Below are positions 4,296-42,863 of a stretch of 46,362 nucleotides of DNA, in pieces. The translations under genes were made by a program, and so were the position numbers. The notes beneath the pieces are model-generated. The model was not told the DNA's origin, did not search any database, and saw only the letters and a list, made by a program, of their open reading frames with translations. The number at the start of each line of letters is the position of its first letter. Within the stretch, counting starts at the first letter, position 1. Origin of the DNA: a virus (Duplodnaviria > Caudoviricetes); IMG/VR virus record IMGVR_UViG_3300022217_000001, positions 1 to 46,362 of that record; one strand, written 5' to 3'.

Positions 4296-4664
4296 CTAAT
4301 CCCCTTCTAAGTAACTTTCAATTATTGCCTTAGCATCATCGTATCCTGCCGCCCACACTGCTAAATATCCCTTATCGCTCATATCACTAAGAAACGCTCT
4401 TTGGTCAGTAGTAACACTGCACCATGTCTTGCCTTTGTCTTTCATCTCAATAAATAAACCATGATACTTGTGATTTGGCGCCGCCAGAAATAAATCAGCA
4501 ACCCCATTTGTCATACCCTCCGATTTATACTTGTTAATAAGAGCAAATTTTTCCCCACCGCTTCCAGCAATCCATTGACCATTGGGTATAGCAAATAACC
4601 ATAACCCAGGATATTTAAAATTAAACCACGATATTAATGCTGCCTGTTCTGTTGATTCACTCAT
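4296..4664 (-). CDS. VRR-NUC domain nuclease
   Basis: ESTEQ...FAIPNG...GVADL...GLFIEMK...Q. Confidence 0.85.
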   Translation of the reverse strand: MSESTEQAALISWFNFKYPGLWLFAIPNGQWIAGSGGEKFALINKYKSEGMTNGVADLFLAAPNHKYHGLFIEMKDKGKTWCSVTTDQRAFLSDMSDKGYLAVWAAGYDDAKAIIESYLEGD

Positions 4665-4989
4665 ACCGTAACCCCCTCTCTATTTCGTCCAGATCAACCT
4701 TTAACCTCTCACTCTCCAGCCTCATAATTTCCGCTTTTTCTTCTCCAACTCGATCGAGCCACCACTCCTTAAAATCTTTAGGATGTACCTCAGCCCAGTT
4801 GTGGCACTTTTTACAAAGCAAAATACATGCTGCTATCATCCAGCGAGTCCCAAACTTATCCCGTTTATAAGCGTGGTGAACTTCCAAAGGATAGAAGCTG
4901 CCGTCGTGTGAACATTTTTGACAAATTTTATCCCGGTCCTGTACGAGTTTTCTTAATTTATTGTCCATGCGTTTTATTTGTGGTTTCAC
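4657..4989 (-). CDS. NinG/HNH-type endonuclease
   Basis: RDKICQKC...EVHH...LCKKCH. Confidence 0.75.
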   Translation of the reverse strand: MKPQIKRMDNKLRKLVQDRDKICQKCSHDGSFYPLEVHHAYKRDKFGTRWMIAACILLCKKCHNWAEVHPKDFKEWWLDRVGEEKAEIMRLESERLKVDLDEIERGLRYE

Positions 4990-4998
4990 TCTCTCCCT

Positions 4999-5046
4999 CC
5001 CTAACTACCAATACAGCGGACTACGCCGCTGATTTAATTGTTAGGC
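4999..5046 (+). repeat. attC-like site A (48 bp)
   Basis: CCCTAAC-TACCA-ATACAGCGGAC-TAC-GCCGCTGAT-TTAATT-GTTAGGC; near-identical inverted copy at 11979-12026. Confidence 0.75.
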
Positions 5047-5391
5047 TGATGTTGCCTCAATAAGCTCATTGGCATCAACAATAAAACTCTTGTAATCGCG
5101 GCCAATAGCACTTTTGCTGTTGCATTTAAAATATTTTTTTCTATCAGGATCGTTCGGCAATATAAACCATGTACAATCCTCTATATCAGCAAATCGGCTT
5201 AATCCATCGCTTAACAAAGCTTTATGCCATTTAGCTGCACAATCTACCGCATTCATAGCACGGGTTCTTGCTGTTAAATACTGTTTGTTTCTGGCAGCTA
5301 ATTCCGAATCCTGTAAGTGCGTCAAGATTTCATCATACGCCTTTTTATGCAAATCATGATTTTTATCGCGTTTATCCGTCTTTGTTTTCAT
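5041..5391 (-). CDS. Hypothetical protein whose stop codon lies in the attC-like core
   Basis: GGAGGGAG RBS; TAA stop within GCCTAAC. Confidence 0.65.
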   Translation of the reverse strand: MKTKTDKRDKNHDLHKKAYDEILTHLQDSELAARNKQYLTARTRAMNAVDCAAKWHKALLSDGLSRFADIEDCTWFILPNDPDRKKYFKCNSKSAIGRDYKSFIVDANELIEATSA

Positions 5392-5563: not shown

Positions 5564-5601
5564 ATCCCTCCTTTACTTACCTCTGTGACTCTCCCTATGA
5601 C

Positions 5602-6102
5602 CTATTTTTTTAATCTTTCAAATATCTGGTATATAAATTCAATAGCCCATTTCGGCAGCTTTATCTTATCCTTATTATTTTCATAATATTCTTGTGCTGT
5701 ATCTCCAAACTTATAACCCATAGCCATCCAATCAACAACCATATGGACACAATGAACTTCTCCCTCGTAAGGATTGTAGTAATCCCTACTTGCCCAATTT
5801 TCCCAATGATGAGGATTGTTTTTCTTGTGGTGCTCCCATGCTTCAGACATATCATATTTAGATTCACCTTTAATCGGATAAAATGACTTTCTATATTGTA
5901 TAAATTCTTGTTCTGATAATTTTGAAATGTCATGTGATTTCACTTCCGCGTCAATTAACCAAAAAACATAATCATCCCACATAAAACGCATATCTTTGCA
6001 ATTGTCTTGTAATTCCCTCCACGCTTTATCGACATTACTTATATGCTCTTCTAGATAATCTAAATACTTTCTTGTCTTGTATATTAATTCTAAAGCTTTC
6101 AT
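5602..6102 (-). CDS. HD-fold protein, DUF5662-like
   Basis: HDISK, WEHHKKNNPHHWE, HMVVDWMAM. Confidence 0.75.
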   Translation of the reverse strand: MKALELIYKTRKYLDYLEEHISNVDKAWRELQDNCKDMRFMWDDYVFWLIDAEVKSHDISKLSEQEFIQYRKSFYPIKGESKYDMSEAWEHHKKNNPHHWENWASRDYYNPYEGEVHCVHMVVDWMAMGYKFGDTAQEYYENNKDKIKLPKWAIEFIYQIFERLKK

Positions 6103-6126
6103 ATCCCTCCTCTATGACTCTCCCGG

Positions 6127-6294
6127 TTAAATATTAATATAATCTGTGATAATTTTAATTTTAGAAGAATACTCCTCGGCACTCATTGGGCCTTTAAATA
6201 AAAGTCTCTTAGCTCTTTCATATTCCAACATTGACCGGCTGTTCTTAGTTACCTTGTGCCTTCTGAGTTCGTTTATTACTTCCTGTTCATTCAT
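6127..6294 (-). CDS. 55-aa hypothetical protein
   Basis: Manual translation MNEQEVINELRRHKV...; GAGG RBS; overlaps the upstream stop. Confidence 0.5.
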   Translation of the reverse strand: MNEQEVINELRRHKVTKNSRSMLEYERAKRLLFKGPMSAEEYSSKIKIITDYINI

Positions 6295-10898: not shown

Positions 10899-10989
10899 GA
10901 CAATCTATCATTGTTTTATTGCGATTGTCAACCAATAAAAAAATTAATTTACTTTTTTTGTTGCATTATGTTTTTAAATGAGGTAATAT
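10899..10989. promoter_or_regulatory. Divergent early promoter pair (genetic switch region)
   Basis: Minus strand TTGACA(10931-10926)-18-TAGATT; plus strand TTGCAT(10961)-17-TAATAT; GACAATC...GATTGTC inverted repeat at 10899-10929. Confidence 0.65.
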
Positions 10990-11015: not shown

Positions 11016-11240
11016 ATGGAAAAATTTATTGAACTGGTTAGAGTCGAGCGGATTATCGTGCTAAAAAAATCACAGGCTGAAATGGATTTATATGTCGGAG
11101 TGTCGCAGCATACGACACACAAACTTGAAGCCGGTAGAATATCAAACTATAATACTCTAAATAAATATCTAACTAAATGTGGCTATGAACTACAGGCTGT
11201 TAAAGTCAAAAAAAGGGAGGGGAATAATGAATTATCATAA
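11016..11240 (+). CDS. XRE/Cro-like HTH protein
   Basis: KSQAEMDLYVGVSQHTTHKLEAG. Confidence 0.75.
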   Translation: MEKFIELVRVERIIVLKKSQAEMDLYVGVSQHTTHKLEAGRISNYNTLNKYLTKCGYELQAVKVKKREGNNELS

Positions 11241-11418
11241 AAAGATAAACGCTCAAAGAGAGCTACTTGATATGTCCCTAGAAGTTCTTTCTGGACTGAC
11301 TGAGATATCCGTGGGTAAGTTAAAAGAAATCGAAAGCGGTGCAGACTTTACGCCACAACAGCTTTATTTAATATCCCAGGCCCTAGGTATTTGGTTGATG
11401 TCGGAATGGGAAAAATAA
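11227..11418 (+). CDS. XRE/Cro-like HTH protein
   Basis: MSLEVLSGLTEISVGKLKEIESG...ISQALG; stop codon in the attC-like core. Confidence 0.75.
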   Translation: MNYHKKINAQRELLDMSLEVLSGLTEISVGKLKEIESGADFTPQQLYLISQALGIWLMSEWEK

Positions 11419-11511
11419 CGATTGAGTTCACCGGCAGAATGCCGAGTGAATAACTTGAATTACACATTGAAATATCGCGGCATTCTGTCCGAGTGCAACG
11501 ACTTGTTATAT
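11413..11511 (-). repeat. attC-like site B (99 bp)
   Basis: Minus strand ATATAAC-AAGTC-GTTGCACTCGGACAGAATGCCG...CGGCATTCTGCCGGTGAAC-TCAATC-GTTATTT with three unpaired bases on the R''/L'' arm. Confidence 0.85.
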
Positions 11512-11524
11512 GCGAGGGTTATAT

Positions 11525-11692
11525 ATGGAGAAAGTAGATGACGATACGGTGCAGGATTTTTTAATTTGGCTAAAAGGTCGAGAGAGTGATATTGCTGACG
11601 GTATAGAAGATTTTGGCGAACTGCAAGAGCTTTTCCACCAGCTTTATGGGCGCAACGCTGGCGAGCCTGATGCTGATACGCCATTATTTTAA
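11525..11692 (+). CDS. Acidic 55-aa cassette gene between attC-like sites B and D
   Basis: GAGG RBS; MEKVDDDTVQDFLIWL... Confidence 0.65.
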   Translation: MEKVDDDTVQDFLIWLKGRESDIADGIEDFGELQELFHQLYGRNAGEPDADTPLF

Positions 11693-11694
11693 GC

Positions 11695-11825
11695 AAATAA
11701 ATTTGAATTAACTGGCTTGCGGGCCAAAGGAGGGGATGATGGAAGAATATGAAAAGCCGTGGACAAAAGAACAAGTTGCAAAAGCCATGCTTGGTAGCAA
11801 GTCCGAGTTGAATGAGGGGTTAAAT
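11695..11825 (-). repeat. attC-like site D (degenerate R'), with an ORF start inside its loop
   Basis: Arms ATTAACTGGCTTGC and GCAAGTCCGAGTTGAAT pair with extra bases; GTTAAAT at 11819-11825. Confidence 0.7.
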
Positions 11826-11984
11826 GCCCTTGTTCCTCTATGGGAAAACCGTTGGAGAAATTGTTTGTTACAAGCCGAACAATTAGGGAAAAGAGGAAAA
11901 TATTATGAAGCTGCTGAACGCAAAATTCAGGCAAACGCATTTATGGACGCAGCAAAAGAGCTCAAAGAGAAATTGGGCATTTAA
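11736..11984 (+). CDS. Hypothetical cassette gene running from the loop of site D to site C
   Basis: GGAGGGG RBS in the loop; SKSELNEGLNA is encoded by the attC arm; TAA stop in ATTTAAC. Confidence 0.7.
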   Translation: MMEEYEKPWTKEQVAKAMLGSKSELNEGLNALVPLWENRWRNCLLQAEQLGKRGKYYEAAERKIQANAFMDAAKELKEKLGI

Positions 11985-12026
11985 CAATTAACTCAGCGGC
12001 GTAGTCCGCTGTATTGGTAGTTAAGG
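11979..12026 (-). repeat. attC-like site C (48 bp)
   Basis: Minus strand CCTTAAC-TACCA-ATACAGCGGACTACGCCGCTGAG-TTAATT-GTTAAAT. Confidence 0.8.
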
Positions 12027-12033
12027 AGGGAAA

Positions 12034-12288
12034 ATGGGCGATATGGGAGATGATTTTAAGGCTATGAAGGAACATAGCAAGAAAAAAAGAGCAGGCAATA
12101 GGGAACAGTCAGCACAGCACTTGAGAGATAGAGGAATATTGTTTTCCGCTAACAATAATGGGGCGCACTTGATAGTGGAGGGCAAAGACGGTTATATAGA
12201 TTTCTGGCCTGGAACTGGTAGATGGAAAACACGGAAAGGTAAAACTGGATTTGGAGTAAGAAATCTGGCTAAACTGATAAATGGCTGA
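12034..12288 (+). CDS. Conserved hypothetical phage protein
   Basis: MGDMGDDF...NNGAHLIV...IDFWPGTGRW pattern. Confidence 0.7.
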   Translation: MGDMGDDFKAMKEHSKKKRAGNREQSAQHLRDRGILFSANNNGAHLIVEGKDGYIDFWPGTGRWKTRKGKTGFGVRNLAKLING

Positions 12289-12448
12289 TTATCAAGTATA
12301 TAACAGTGCTAGCGACAAAAGTGATCCCAGAAACGCAGATGATTGCACTTGTGATAGACCTTATCATGGTATGTGTATATGTAATCATGATGATGATTGT
12401 TTGTGCCGGGGATGTGTTGAAAGGAGAGAAGAACATGAAGAGAGATAA
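12281..12448 (+). CDS. 55-aa Cys/Asp-rich peptide (7 Cys)
   Basis: Manual translation MADYQVYNSASDKSDPRNADDCTCDRPYHGMCICNHDDDCLCRGCVERREEHEER; overlaps both neighbours. Confidence 0.55.
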   Translation: MADYQVYNSASDKSDPRNADDCTCDRPYHGMCICNHDDDCLCRGCVERREEHEER

Positions 12449-13038: not shown

Positions 13039-13109
13039 TTGAGGCTGCATCGAGGGCTACTTATTTATCTTGATAGTAGTAAGTAGATATAGCCTCTTTG
13101 CAGCCTCAA
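13039..13109. other. Long intergenic stem-loop
   Basis: TTGAGGCTGCA/TGCAGCCTCAA outer stem plus inner GGCTA/TAGCC and CTACTTA/TAAGTAG. Confidence 0.65.
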
Positions 13110-13571: not shown

Positions 13572-13694
13572 AAGCGGAGTGTAGGGAGTAAAAAATGTGG
13601 GTTCGATTCCCATCTTCTCATAGAGACGCTCTTGGAGAGAAGCCCTAACAAGGTCAGAACGGTTCGATTCCGTAAGGATTCCCTGCCTCCGCTT
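13572..13694 (+). ncRNA. Structured RNA with two T-loop (GGTTCGATTCC) hairpins
   Basis: Closing stem AAGCGGAG.GTAGGGAGT/ATTCCCTGC.CTCCGCTT; T-arms near 13597-13613 and 13659-13673. Confidence 0.6.
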
Positions 13695-13703
13695 CAAATA
13701 AAT

Positions 13704-13827
13704 GGTAAGGTGGCTCAAGTTCTTGGCAAAGAACATACAGCACACAATGGCAAGTGGTATCTACATAATAATAATTATAAGCCAAATAATTATTTGTAGA
13801 TTGAAGGTGTAAATCCTTCCCTTACCC
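13704..13827 (+). ncRNA. tRNA-like RNA or pseudo-tRNA with an expanded interior
   Basis: Acceptor stem GGTAAGG/CCTTACC, TGGCTCAA start, T-arm GAAGG-TGTAAAT-CCTTC; no canonical anticodon arm. Confidence 0.55.
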
Positions 13828-13848
13828 CTAAATAAATGGAGGGATAGA

Positions 13849-14016: not shown

Positions 14017-14886
14017 ATGAGCAATTCTTTAGTGAAGGAGAATGAAATAAAGAAAGCTATTAGCAGCCCAGATGTTGAGGAAGCTTTTCTTAGCAATGCA
14101 AGTAAAGAAGCACTTGTGAGGGAAATAAACTTCGCTCTCCAAATCCTACAGGGAAATGAATATCTCCAAAAATGCAAGCCGGATACTATAAGGAATGCAG
14201 TTAAGAATGTAGCTTTGACAGGTATAACTTTGAACCCATCGCAGGGATTGGCCTATTTGGTTCCGAGAAAAGCTAAGAGAACAGACCAATTTCAATCCTG
14301 CTGCCTTGATTTCTCCTATAAAGGCCTTTGTCATATAGCAGTTCAATCTGGCGCAGTGTATGACATTTCTGCTCATGTAGCATACAAGAAGGATGACTTT
14401 TATATTGAGCAGGGAACTACTCCACAAATTAAGCATATTGTTTCTTTAGAGCAAGATCGAGGGGAGGCTACCCACGTCTATGCTATCGCCAGCCTACATC
14501 ACAACATAAAGAAATTTGAAGTCATGACCATAGCAGAAGTAAACGAAATCCGAAGAATGTCAAAGCAGCCTGATGGCATGATGTGGAAAGACTTCTTTGG
14601 CGAAGGTTGCAGAAAAACAGTGATCAAAAGGATCTGTAAATACTTGCCGCAAAAAGGGGCATTGGCCGAAGCGGTGGCACTTAGCCATGAGATTGACGGT
14701 GCCAATGATGATTTTATCTATATTTCTGAAAGTCAAATTGAGGAAATAAACAAACTCTTGGAGGAAAAGGGCGCGGCACTGGAAGCATTGTTAAATTATC
14801 TGAAAGTTGATAGTTTAGAAAAAGTGCTGTCTTCTGATTACAACAGAGCTATTCAAAGCCTAAAACTCATAGAGGTAGATAAGTGA
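14017..14886 (+). CDS. recT: RecT-family single-strand annealing protein
   Basis: GITLNPSQGLAYLVP, DFSYKGL, EGCRKTVIKRICKYLP. Confidence 0.9.
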   Translation: MSNSLVKENEIKKAISSPDVEEAFLSNASKEALVREINFALQILQGNEYLQKCKPDTIRNAVKNVALTGITLNPSQGLAYLVPRKAKRTDQFQSCCLDFSYKGLCHIAVQSGAVYDISAHVAYKKDDFYIEQGTTPQIKHIVSLEQDRGEATHVYAIASLHHNIKKFEVMTIAEVNEIRRMSKQPDGMMWKDFFGEGCRKTVIKRICKYLPQKGALAEAVALSHEIDGANDDFIYISESQIEEINKLLEEKGAALEALLNYLKVDSLEKVLSSDYNRAIQSLKLIEVDK

Positions 14887-15488
14887 TTGCCTTAGATTGC
14901 CCACAGGGCAGTGAAGAGTGGCAATCTGCAAGGGTGGGCCTGCCTACGGCCTCAGTTATGAATCAAGTCATAACAACTAAAGGCGAAGTTTCAAAGCAGG
15001 GTGAAAAGCTCATGTGGAAACTGGCCGGTGAAAGGATAATAGGGAAAAAGGAAGAGACCTACACAAACGCTGCAATGGAAAGAGGCATAGAGTTAGAACC
15101 AGAAGCAAGGGCTCTATTTGAGCTTCTGACTGGCCTTGACGTTCAAGAGATAGGTCTATGCTACTTTGATGATAAAAAGTCCTTGGGATGCTCTCCTGAT
15201 GGCCTTATAGGTGATAATGAAGGACTGGAGATCAAATGTCCTTCGCTGGCTGTTCATGTTGGGTATCTGATAAAAAATAAACTCCCAACTGATTACTTTC
15301 AGCAAGTTCAAAGCAGCCTTTACATTACAGGCTGTGAGCGTTGGCATTTTTTCTCTTACTATCCTGGAATCAAGCCTTTTCACATAATTGTAGAGCGCGA
15401 CGAAATATGGATTGCTAAATTTTCAAAGATTATCAGTGAATTTTGCGAAGAGCTTGAGGGAGCTTATAAAAAGTTGAAGGAGGTTTGA
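14883..15488 (+). CDS. YqaJ/lambda-type exonuclease
   Basis: [36 protein letters not shown]. Confidence 0.9.
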
Positions 15489-15489
15489 T

Positions 15490-15885
15490 ATGGCTAGTTT
15501 GAATAAGGTTCATCTTATAGGAAATCTGGGCCGTGATCCAGAAGTGAGATACACGAAGTCTGGTAAAGCGGTTGCTTCATTCAGTATCGCAACTACGGAA
15601 AAATGGACTGACGAATCAGGCAATAAGAACAAAAAAACAGAGTGGCATCGAATAATTGCATGGGGAAAACTTGGCGAAATCTGCGGAGAATACCTTTCCA
15701 AGGGGAATCAGGTTTATATTGAGGGTAAATTACAAACGAGGGAGTGGGAAGATAAAGACGGCAACAAGAGGCAAACAACAGAGATTGTCGCCAGCAATAT
15801 GACCATGCTCGGTCAGGCAGGCGGTGCTGGTAACTCAAATAATAGTGGGGCAGATGACTTTGAGGAGGAGGATATACCCTTCTAA
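15490..15885 (+). CDS. ssb: Single-stranded DNA-binding protein
   Basis: [22 protein letters not shown]-terminal DIPF. Confidence 0.97.
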
Positions 15886-15929: not shown

Positions 15930-15979
15930 GCCTAACATTCGCAATCAGTGGCTTTAGTCCACTGGGTTAACTGTTAGGA
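15930..15979 (-). repeat. attC-like site E (50 bp)
   Basis: Minus strand TCCTAAC-AGTTA-ACCCAGTGGAC-TAAA-GCCACTGAT-TGCGAAT-GTTAGGC; covarying stem relative to A and C. Confidence 0.7.
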
Positions 15980-40394: not shown

Positions 40395-42863
40395 CTAACA
40401 TTTACCAGCCATGATTTCAGCTAATGTTAAATTTTGTTCCATGTGTTGAGCCATTGCAGTGATGTCTACGTCTTCATCATGGGCAGCATTTGGAAATTTA
40501 ACTAAACTCGTTTCATATTTTGCTTTATATGGAGCATCTCTATGTATAAAGACACGTTCATTTTGAAAATATGTTGCCATTGGTGTGGCTCTGGCGTATT
40601 TGTCTAAACCCTCTGTAGGTATTTCCTTAAATGGTATCTTAACACCGCCTACTGAGTCATTACCAGCAGATTGTTTAACTAAGACTTTCCCAAGCTTCTC
40701 ATTCTCAATTCCAATGCTTGTACATCTGTTTTTAAAGGCAAAGAGTTTTATCCTTCCCATTATCTTTTGATGCTCAATGCGTTCGTTGATTCTGTCTAAT
40801 AATACCCATACTCGTTCTTTTCTGGAATAACCCCATGCTGCCATCCCTGTAGGATCATTGCTTGTCTTTATCTCAATAGCCGGGTCAACATATACATGCC
40901 TTATTAATTCCCGGCTTTTTAACCTTAACGGCTCTTCAATGTCTTTACGCCAGCAGAGTATATCAGATGTCATTTTATCGATAGTGTAATATCTGAAATC
41001 TTCCGTCTTAAATAGATTGCCTCCTATTGCTACCGGGTCACCATCGAATAAAGCCGCCCATTCATAAGGCCCAACCATTTTTTTAATATGATTTAATCGC
41101 TCTTCGTTGTAGCGCCAAGGCCACAAGGCCTCTCCTGGCTCTCTGCCTAGAATATCGTTTTCTTTAGCTAATGCAGTTAAAACAATGTGCTGTAAATCAT
41201 AGGGGCTATCATCTCCTAATTCTTTATGCTGAGCTAATATTCTGCCTACCAAATCATCATCATGCCACCGGGTAGCAAATAAAAAAACCACTCCCCCCGG
41301 ATGTATACGAGTCCCGGCTACACTCTCCCACCATGTCCAATTTGATTCACGTTCACCTAATGATTCTGCTTGCTTACGGGTTTTGTGATAATCATCAATA
41401 AATAAAACATCAGCCCCAAAACCTGACGCGCCTCCCTCCATCCCAACTGCAAGCACTTCGCCGCCTTCTTCAGTCTGCCATAAACCACGGCTAAAGACTT
41501 TTTTACTTGGATGAGTATTCCAAAGTATTGGCCCCCATTTTTGAAAAATATCACGGCCTTTAGAACTATGATTCTCGGCCAATGTAGCGGCATATGCTGT
41601 AATGATGATTTTAAGTTTTGGAAAGTTGCCCAGTAGAAAAGGTGGGGCATGAATGGGGAATTGTTCTGAATTATGCGTAGGGATTAATGTTTTACCTACT
41701 AAATAAAGACCATCTTTGGAGTCTACCTGTATACACTTGCCTTTGTATCCCCGAGAGTCAACAGAAATACTCTTTATGCCTATTTTTCGCCTCAGAGCAT
41801 GACATTTTATTTCTTTACGTTTCAATGCTACTGGTATTTTACAAGTAGGCTGAAATCCTACTGTATAAACATTTTGTCTTCCAATAATCCCAGATGTAGA
41901 AATTATTGGTTTCTGCATTGTTATATATGGCCTCCATCCAAGCGACATTGCTACATCTTTGATATCTTCTGCAAGCATCAACGATACTGTCACAATCCTG
42001 ACTCGGCCCGTCTCTTTTTCTACATGACCATCTGTATCTATTAATCCAGCCATTAATTCCAGCCTATCATTTTTGTTTGTATATTTATAATTGTCCGGTA
42101 TGAATTTTCCTTTATTTACATTAATAGATTTCAGAGCATTCCAGAACTTACCACCTACCCCGACTTTGCCACCAAAAGAAGTCATGCATACTCCTGTGAT
42201 TTTATGTATCCATTTCGCTGATATTGTGTAGCCAAGGGAACTTATTTTATTTATAATCGCTTGATCTTCTTTGGCATGAGTGATGCACGGCTTTGTTGTT
42301 GAGCCATCACCCAACCAAGCACCTAAAGCATAGGGATGTAGAAGATGTTTTCGCGAGGGGAATTCAAGACATTCAATATCCTGAACTTGATATCGGCATC
42401 TTTCTTTGTATGGCGGCTTCATGTGAGCCGTCTCTAATGTTTTCCATGTTCGACGGTGCTCTATAACAGTCCATTCATGATTTCCATGGCAATAAATTAT
42501 TTCACCATTTGTGAATTCAACTTTATAATCTGCTTTGCCTGGGGAACTCAGAGCTAAAACTTTAATTGCTTTGCCGTATGGAGAAAACACATAATCACCA
42601 ACTTTGATTTCTCCATGTGTTTTCCAGCCATTTATAGTCAATACTGGAATGTGGTCAGCTATCAATTTTCCATGTCTGGGAGGGCCATGTACGATCAATA
42701 CCTTGATCTTATTGGTCCTCTTATGAAACGTCTCCATGAATATTTCAGAGACTTTCCTCAAATATCCAGGGCTTTTAAATCCCGATATTAACTTAGGAAA
42801 TAACCATAAATTATCACGGGCTAAGGCTGCAAACTCTTTTATTGTCGGTTTACGTTCAATCAG
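40395..42863 (-). CDS. terL: Terminase large subunit with intein
   Basis: PPRHGK|S Walker A, VLFIDD Walker B, TRWH.DD, YVDPA, HDEDVD; frame open to 42863. Confidence 0.92.
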   Translation of the reverse strand: MIERKPTIKEFAALARDNLWLFPKLISGFKSPGYLRKVSEIFMETFHKRTNKIKVLIVHGPPRHGKLIADHIPVLTINGWKTHGEIKVGDYVFSPYGKAIKVLALSSPGKADYKVEFTNGEIIYCHGNHEWTVIEHRRTWKTLETAHMKPPYKERCRYQVQDIECLEFPSRKHLLHPYALGAWLGDGSTTKPCITHAKEDQAIINKISSLGYTISAKWIHKITGVCMTSFGGKVGVGGKFWNALKSINVNKGKFIPDNYKYTNKNDRLELMAGLIDTDGHVEKETGRVRIVTVSLMLAEDIKDVAMSLGWRPYITMQKPIISTSGIIGRQNVYTVGFQPTCKIPVALKRKEIKCHALRRKIGIKSISVDSRGYKGKCIQVDSKDGLYLVGKTLIPTHNSEQFPIHAPPFLLGNFPKLKIIITAYAATLAENHSSKGRDIFQKWGPILWNTHPSKKVFSRGLWQTEEGGEVLAVGMEGGASGFGADVLFIDDYHKTRKQAESLGERESNWTWWESVAGTRIHPGGVVFLFATRWHDDDLVGRILAQHKELGDDSPYDLQHIVLTALAKENDILGREPGEALWPWRYNEERLNHIKKMVGPYEWAALFDGDPVAIGGNLFKTEDFRYYTIDKMTSDILCWRKDIEEPLRLKSRELIRHVYVDPAIEIKTSNDPTGMAAWGYSRKERVWVLLDRINERIEHQKIMGRIKLFAFKNRCTSIGIENEKLGKVLVKQSAGNDSVGGVKIPFKEIPTEGLDKYARATPMATYFQNERVFIHRDAPYKAKYETSLVKFPNAAHDEDVDITAMAQHMEQNLTLAEIMAGKC
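41670..42665 (-). mobile_element. Class 3 intein (332 aa) with LAGLIDADG homing endonuclease
   Basis: Starts LIADHIPVLT and ends IPTHN|S; NHEW, KCIQV and THN give the WCT triad; LGAWLGDG and LMAGLIDTDG. Confidence 0.9.

Follow-up and report, generated by a model that had tools for sequence, protein, structure and literature searches.

Hairpins with the architecture of integron attC sites lie between small early genes of a phage, and the locus raises the question of whether such genes can move as integron cassettes when the phage encodes no integron integrase and the genes face the opposite way from their sites. In integrons, a position of the gene on the top strand is generally regarded as a requirement for cassettes. 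The window analyzed in this work is a whole phage genome of 46,362 bp with direct terminal repeats, rated 100% complete. It carries myovirus-type structural genes, replication genes, and a set of RecT, YqaJ exonuclease and SSB genes (14017-15885, plus strand) that represents the homologous recombination machinery of the phage, and its two early arms diverge near position 10,900. The metagenome runs holding this genome come from sediment and estuary. With respect to the host, the best named SSB homologue is labelled Deltaproteobacteria, a weak hint.

Detection and architecture of the attC sites

An earlier note, made from the letters of this DNA alone, had placed three attC sites behind small plus-strand genes, and all three were recovered: B (11413-11511), D (11695-11825), and C (11979-12026). 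Two further sites were found, namely, A (4999-5046) in the minus-strand early arm and E (15930-15979) between the SSB gene and a resolvase-like gene. The attC top strand is the minus strand for B, C, D, and E and the plus strand for A. Sites were scored with a self-built covariance model trained on 22 sites, of which 11 belong to annotated plasmid integrons and the other 11 to bacterial loci selected for C-family sites. The model ranked B, A, E, and C first, each opposite to the strand of its genes. B obtained 35.5 bits (E 2.7e-6) and D, in a local search, 7.8 bits, whereas the scores of A (27.4 bits), E (23.3 bits), and C (13.8 bits, E 0.47) are not fully independent because half of the model training came from C-family-selected loci. 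By this self-built model B is a strong attC site, whereas C is not significant by itself.

B is the best-formed site. A rule-based scanner assigned it a score of 13-14, a level for which shuffled genomes give 0.00-0.017 matches each, and its fold has a z of -3.7. On the minus strand its layout is R''-5-L''...L'-6-R', and the R''/L'' arm has three bases left unpaired. On the bottom strand these bases are C, A, and T, to be compared with G16, A20, and T24 reported for attCoxa2 (PMC5027507); the first is C and not the usual G, as is also the case in the cmlA site. The predicted crossover of B, AA|C at 11418/11419, falls inside the stop codon of a small plus-strand gene (11227-11418) with a helix-turn-helix match below the cut-off (HTH_3, E 2.5e-4), and the TAA of this gene forms the R' box of the site.

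C is short and, taken alone, weak, since its scanner score of 7-8 is met 0.6-1.35 times per shuffled genome. It was accepted as real because it has a second copy in A, with which it shares 41 of 42 bases from TAAC to GTTA, and because it belongs to a large family. A holds the stop codon of the ORF at 5041-5391; E is not located at a gene stop. The right cores of A, C, and E all resemble ribosome-binding sites, C ending in such a sequence, and A and E have identical 9 bases ending in the left core. D was found by a relaxed scan only, with a score of 14 that was reached by 0 of 40 shuffles. Its whole fold is no better than that of shuffled sequences (z +0.5); both arms nonetheless pair in the attC register, and its loop holds the ribosome-binding site and the start of the next gene. 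The cores (R'' RYYYAAC, R' GTTRRRY) are intact in B, C, A, and E but not in D, a relic in which the crossover triplet is broken (TAAA for TAAC). The claim that both B and C possess the full layout with 5- and 6-nt spacers was confirmed for B only. B and D have 5/6 or 5/5 spacers, whereas A and C pair best at 4/5, a register that is also seen at 77 of 114 sites in bacterial arrays, in loci that were selected for it.

Cassette units and their ends

The sites delimit two units. That of B, at about 11419-11700, carries a 55-aa gene (11525-11692, plus strand) with one other homologue (64% identity) and no family. That of D, at about 11701-11984, carries an 82-aa gene (11736-11984, plus strand) that starts in the D loop, crosses the right arm of D, and stops in the TAAC of C; the only homologue found for its product was the protein itself. 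C is followed by an 84-aa gene (12034-12288, plus strand) that has no closing site here and whose homologue in another locus (L166) is a full inverted cassette. No cargo gene was assigned to a PHROG or Pfam family, and Atlas matches stayed below 0.9 and serve as a lead only. These three sites of the array are situated at stop codons, as had been proposed: B and C hold the upstream stop in their TAAC, and D begins 2 bases after a stop, with its broken core 5 bases after it.

The cassette ends are complementary. The right core of D (11819-11829) and the left core of C (11975-11985) form a perfect 11-nt inverted repeat, for which the chance beyond the 4-nt core is about 6e-5, and the B/D pair matches at 7 of 9 positions as written, with a chance of about 0.015 for the part beyond the core. 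Both matches agree with those claimed previously. Matched ends of this kind mark units that formerly existed as circles with one site at the closure, and the units at about 11419-11700 and 11701-11984 were probably acquired by insertion at TAA|C. For the genes behind C, A, and E, no matching closing end was present downstream, and these three look like left-over sites whose closing partners are gone.

The proposal that the array is being shuffled at present is not supported. Since D has lost its crossover base, the 566-bp block from B to C is the only unit still predicted to be excisable, and excision of 11700-11984, from D to C, would probably fail. No excision joints were found in 8 runs, in which assembled contigs were searched that drop rare forms and mostly cover the stretch in pieces. 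Two runs (X7 and X14) differ from the window at 4657-5046: a site of the A/C type is kept, and the HNH gene after A is seemingly replaced by another gene. This variant breaks about 12 bases past the right core, just beyond the start signal, and not at TAAC. No usable relatives of this phage were obtained: RecT and the two cargo proteins, searched against viral contigs, led to no confirmed locus, the single blastn match among named phages was at chance level, and a metagenome pattern scan returned this genome's own two sites and one unrelated contig.

Recombinase content

The absence of a recognizable phage recombinase, noted earlier, was confirmed. No tyrosine or serine recombinase family was detected in the 109 reading frames of this genome, and a six-frame PF00589 search of the complete sequence was empty, while 14 of 14 control genomes scored. 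The combination of intI and attI that defines a complete integron was not found here. Ten other viral records with these sites give a similar picture: one is over the cut-off for a phage-encoded recombinase, at a provirus end, and one has a weak broken match; completeness reaches 90% or more in only 4 of these 10 records. The best candidate for the enzyme is the IntI of the host. In another record (L185, G004), a C-terminal integrase fragment is situated next to a gene that resembles an IS200/IS605 TnpB.

Gene-site inversion

At all five sites, on both early arms, the recombinogenic bottom strand is the sense strand of the genes, and none has the arrangement of an ordinary cassette, in which the gene precedes its own site and is encoded by the attC top strand. 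Applied to annotated class 1 integrons, the same scanner assigns the genes to the top strand, and with this calibration the inversion, asserted in the earlier note for three sites, holds for all five. A cause tied to a fixed strand, such as rolling-circle replication, was discarded, since the bottom strand of A is on the minus strand and those of B to E are on the plus strand, following transcription.

Flanking genes of the same site families were tallied by hand from family matches on flanking frames, with PHROGs for viral and Pfam for bacterial records. A call based on the longest ORF had been dropped in favor of family matches, as it was unreliable in GC-rich bacterial loci. The genes were inverted at 17 and canonical at 6 of 23 informative viral sites (38 examined), as opposed to 1 inverted and 13 canonical among 14 informative bacterial sites (34 examined, one per contig, from 35 contigs picked among 73 listed loci). 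The difference between viral and bacterial sites is significant (Fisher p 1e-4; 0.002 for the C family alone), figures that are weakened by related records, as the viral sites are not all independent, and by the differing family libraries. Both polarities coexist in viruses: viral B-family sites in L027, L028, L039, and L043 flank DNA methyltransferase genes in normal orientation. No description of a systematic inversion of phage cassettes was found in the openly searchable full texts, in which phage attC clusters are already known.

Site families in other phages and bacteria

The C-family pattern was found at 13 viral and 119 bacterial loci and the B-family pattern at 27 viral loci. The bacterial sites form arrays, mostly in Thermoanaerobaculia and Holophagales and also in Desulfobacterota, and IntI is over the cut-off in 3 of 5 genomes holding C-family sites. 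Among the bacterial loci, L056 represents a complete integron: its IntI reaches 450 bits (cut-off 265), and its C-family sites are intermixed with 5/6-spacer sites. The junction of its attI with the first cassette is at TAA|C, on the strand predicted for this phage. The intI gene of this locus (frame 1057-2595) reads in the same direction as the cassettes, towards attI, unlike in class 1 integrons.

The earlier note had predicted gene gain and loss exactly at the GTT/AAC core. This was observed in other phages with the same site families, whereas for the units of this phage no relatives were found. A 457-bp unit consisting of a site and its downstream gene recurs at 96-99.6% identity in L045, L046, L050, and L051, each time between unrelated neighboring sequences; both of its boundaries are at TAAC, and the gene lies behind the hairpin and has its stop codon in the following site. 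L031 and L042 provide a second case. The direction of the ends is consistent with such units: a partner of at least 8 nt for the right core was present downstream at 19 of 26 B-family viral sites and upstream at 3 of 26, and the corresponding numbers for C-family bacterial sites were 28 and 2 of 55, while none of 10 viral C-family sites had a right-core partner end. Across 25 intervals in six phage arrays, chosen for at least three model matches and with one unit counted three times, the ends matched in 21, the longer ORF was on the bottom strand in 23, and the stop lay in the next TAAC in 19. In a complete 40-kb record (G008), 12 sites are distributed over two opposed arms, PF00589 has no match, and the ends match over at least 9 nt in 6 of the 9 intervals examined. 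The cargo of related arrays is often a DNA methyltransferase.

Hairpin bodies are also swapped at the right core, so that the unit is not always composed of body and gene: one body precedes three different genes (L025, L044, and L047), one methyltransferase unit has differing bodies (L047 and L012), and chimeric bodies were seen in L009, L012, and L013. This exchange fits cassette formation from a common template, RecT-type remodelling, or top-strand recombination, which was reported to be low but real for some sites (PMC5027507).

Relation to known integrons

Arrays of this kind have precedents. Qi et al. 2023 (PMC9892861) reported attC sites between small genes in phages without intI, with 17 CALINs in 10,705 genomes, and found that five of six tested phage sites recombined with IntI1. 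The arrays of TJE1 and PH101 were called typical in that study, and divergent sites were noted in P12002L only. We mapped the published bottom-strand site sequences onto the phage genomes. In TJE1, 3 of 3 sites are canonical. In PH101, 3 of 3 are inverted relative to the annotated genes, including PH101_attC1 and PH101_attC2, both of which were active with IntI1; neither of the two PH101 intervals has matched ends. P12002L_attC1 is also inverted and is the one site that failed with IntI1. Inversion is therefore compatible with IntI1 activity, yet not every inverted site works. The text of that study and part of its supplement contain no mention of inversion, stop-codon crossover, or swapped units; its figures or GenBank annotation file may show the orientation of PH101. 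To this the present analysis adds a contrast in polarity inside site families that also occur in IntI integrons, the double breakpoints, and the link to PH101.

The sites of this phage resemble those of class 1 and sedentary chromosomal integrons (PMC5027507, PMC5371416) in the layout of the R and L boxes, the one-sided unpaired bases, and the complementary ends; the site families found here also occur in bacterial arrays with IntI. The phage differs from these integrons in that its genes are encoded by the bottom strand, so that within a unit the hairpin comes first, that intI, attI, and Pc are lacking, that A and C have short 4/5 spacers, and that one gene starts inside a site. Outside of integrons, IntI has further been reported to insert cassettes at short GWT sites, giving rise to SALINs at attG (bioRxiv 10.1101/2022.09.11.507474). 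Insertion at attG, as outlined there, would explain lone sites such as A and E and the start of the array at a TAAC stop. The SALINs of that preprint are, in the text available, from bacterial chromosomes and contain ordinary cassettes, with no reported bias to inverted cargo. B, D, and C lie within 620 bp with no integrase nearby, and only B exceeds 20 bits in our own model, so the rule of two sites in 3 kb used for CALINs in PMC9892861 might miss the cluster. The array works like integron cassettes, fails as a complete integron and in gene orientation, and is borderline as a CALIN.

Proposed mechanism and alternatives

We consider it probable, with some reserve, that the attC hairpins lie on the sense strand, each forming a likely mobile unit with the gene behind it, and that these units are cut at the left-core AA|C by an integron integrase supplied by the host. 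The architecture and polarity of the sites, the lack of a phage recombinase, the complementary ends, and the location of both breakpoints at TAAC in other phages argue for this reading. Because units in other phages have been swapped exactly at such sites, phages likely borrow the integron enzyme of the host for their small early genes. A unit would begin with the C that follows one TAA, include the hairpin and the gene, and end at the next TAA. Host IntI would fold the sense strand into the hairpin and cut at AA|C, and the TAAC stop codon would present a GWT-type target on the opposite strand. As insertion at TAA|C uses stop codons, the upstream gene would stay whole and the early promoter would also transcribe the new gene; to be expressed after such an insertion, with the upstream gene spared, a cassette would have to carry its gene inverted. 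One may also speculate that an origin of replication between the arms would place the bottom strands on the lagging-strand template, a position reported to raise recombination (PMC5371416).

More tentatively, phages might keep a mirror-image cassette pool of their own, derived from phage genes and inserted at stop codons by host IntI, with the arrays as the birthplace of new cassettes. That new cassettes would be made in arrays is suggested by the finding of one body on different phage genes and of one gene on different bodies. We regard this extension as possible, although the balance is against it.

Instead of being moved by an integrase, the sites might be integron relics that now offer shared homology to RecT and YqaJ, the genes being swapped by homologous recombination inside the hairpins. 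This would agree with the RecT, YqaJ, and SSB genes of the phage, the near identity of A and C (41 of 42 bases), the chimeric bodies in L009, L012, and L013, the X7/X14 variant that breaks outside the core, and the broken D site. However, the boundaries in L045, L046, L050, and L051 are on a core of 4-6 nt followed by dissimilar sites, too short for RecT, and unit-specific end complementarity of 8-12 nt is not made by homologous exchange. We judge this explanation unlikely, and it may describe later remodelling rather than acquisition.

Also improbable, to a similar degree, is that the same site-specific units are moved by a tyrosine recombinase other than canonical IntI, for example, a Xer-like host enzyme. 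The failure of P12002L_attC1 with IntI1 (PMC9892861) would be accounted for in this way, and both the exchange of bodies at the two cores and the 4/5 spacers depart from the textbook site. Against such an enzyme stand the C-family sites found beside a true IntI in L056 and mixed there with 5/6-spacer sites, the IntI over the cut-off in 3 of 5 genomes with these sites, and the activity of inverted PH101 sites with IntI1.

It is far less probable that the hairpins are RNA-level elements, such as terminators or processing or translation-coupling signals, that merely resemble attC. They are situated between stop codons and ribosome-binding sites, and the C stem scores as a terminator-like site on the minus strand (1 found versus 1.8 expected), but fixed core spacing, one-sided bulges, membership in families of IntI arrays, and complementarity of ends between sites need a history of DNA recombination. 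Chance resemblance, for which C (E 0.47) and D (fold z +0.5) leave room in that neither is significant by itself, is refuted by the shuffles and the covariance model for B, which is far beyond shuffled sequences, and for the set of sites, which comprises five sites of one polarity, an 11-nt end match with a probability of about 6e-5, and families that recur in viral and bacterial records, and its probability is negligible.

Under the favored reading, in which host IntI drives the swaps, phages would gain a site-specific route for the exchange of early genes without an enzyme of their own. Were the phage-owned cassette pool to exist, a host platform of anti-phage defence would have been turned into a phage tool for gene shuffling. 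In viruses the genes of the shared site families mostly face the opposite way from their sites, in bacteria they face the normal way, and phage attC clusters had been reported as rare. The families also offer a handle on cassette formation, a step still unexplained, through the tracing of cargo genes, end repeats, and hairpin bodies across many phages. The array of this genome is small and partly decayed and thus of limited value by itself.

Further observations on the genome

A promoter scan gave no signal (7 found versus 9.2 expected), and Rfam yielded 0 matches at gathering score within the window. Several strings resembling tRNA T-arms occur in a gene-free stretch at 13590-13830 and had no match with ARAGORN or Rfam. 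The terminase large subunit (40395-42761) contains an internal LAGLIDADG homing-endonuclease domain, which is probably an intein. A strong hairpin at 13039-13109 (fold z -4.7) is preceded by TAAC and has no GTT core on its right, and a variant in run X8 joins about position 12430 to a point just before it; the hairpin is possibly a decayed site or another element. Finally, a 16-nt direct repeat on the minus strand, at about 5575-5600 and 6105-6130, is located upstream of ribosome-binding sites and flanks the ORF at 5602-6102 (DUF5662), which suggests another module boundary.
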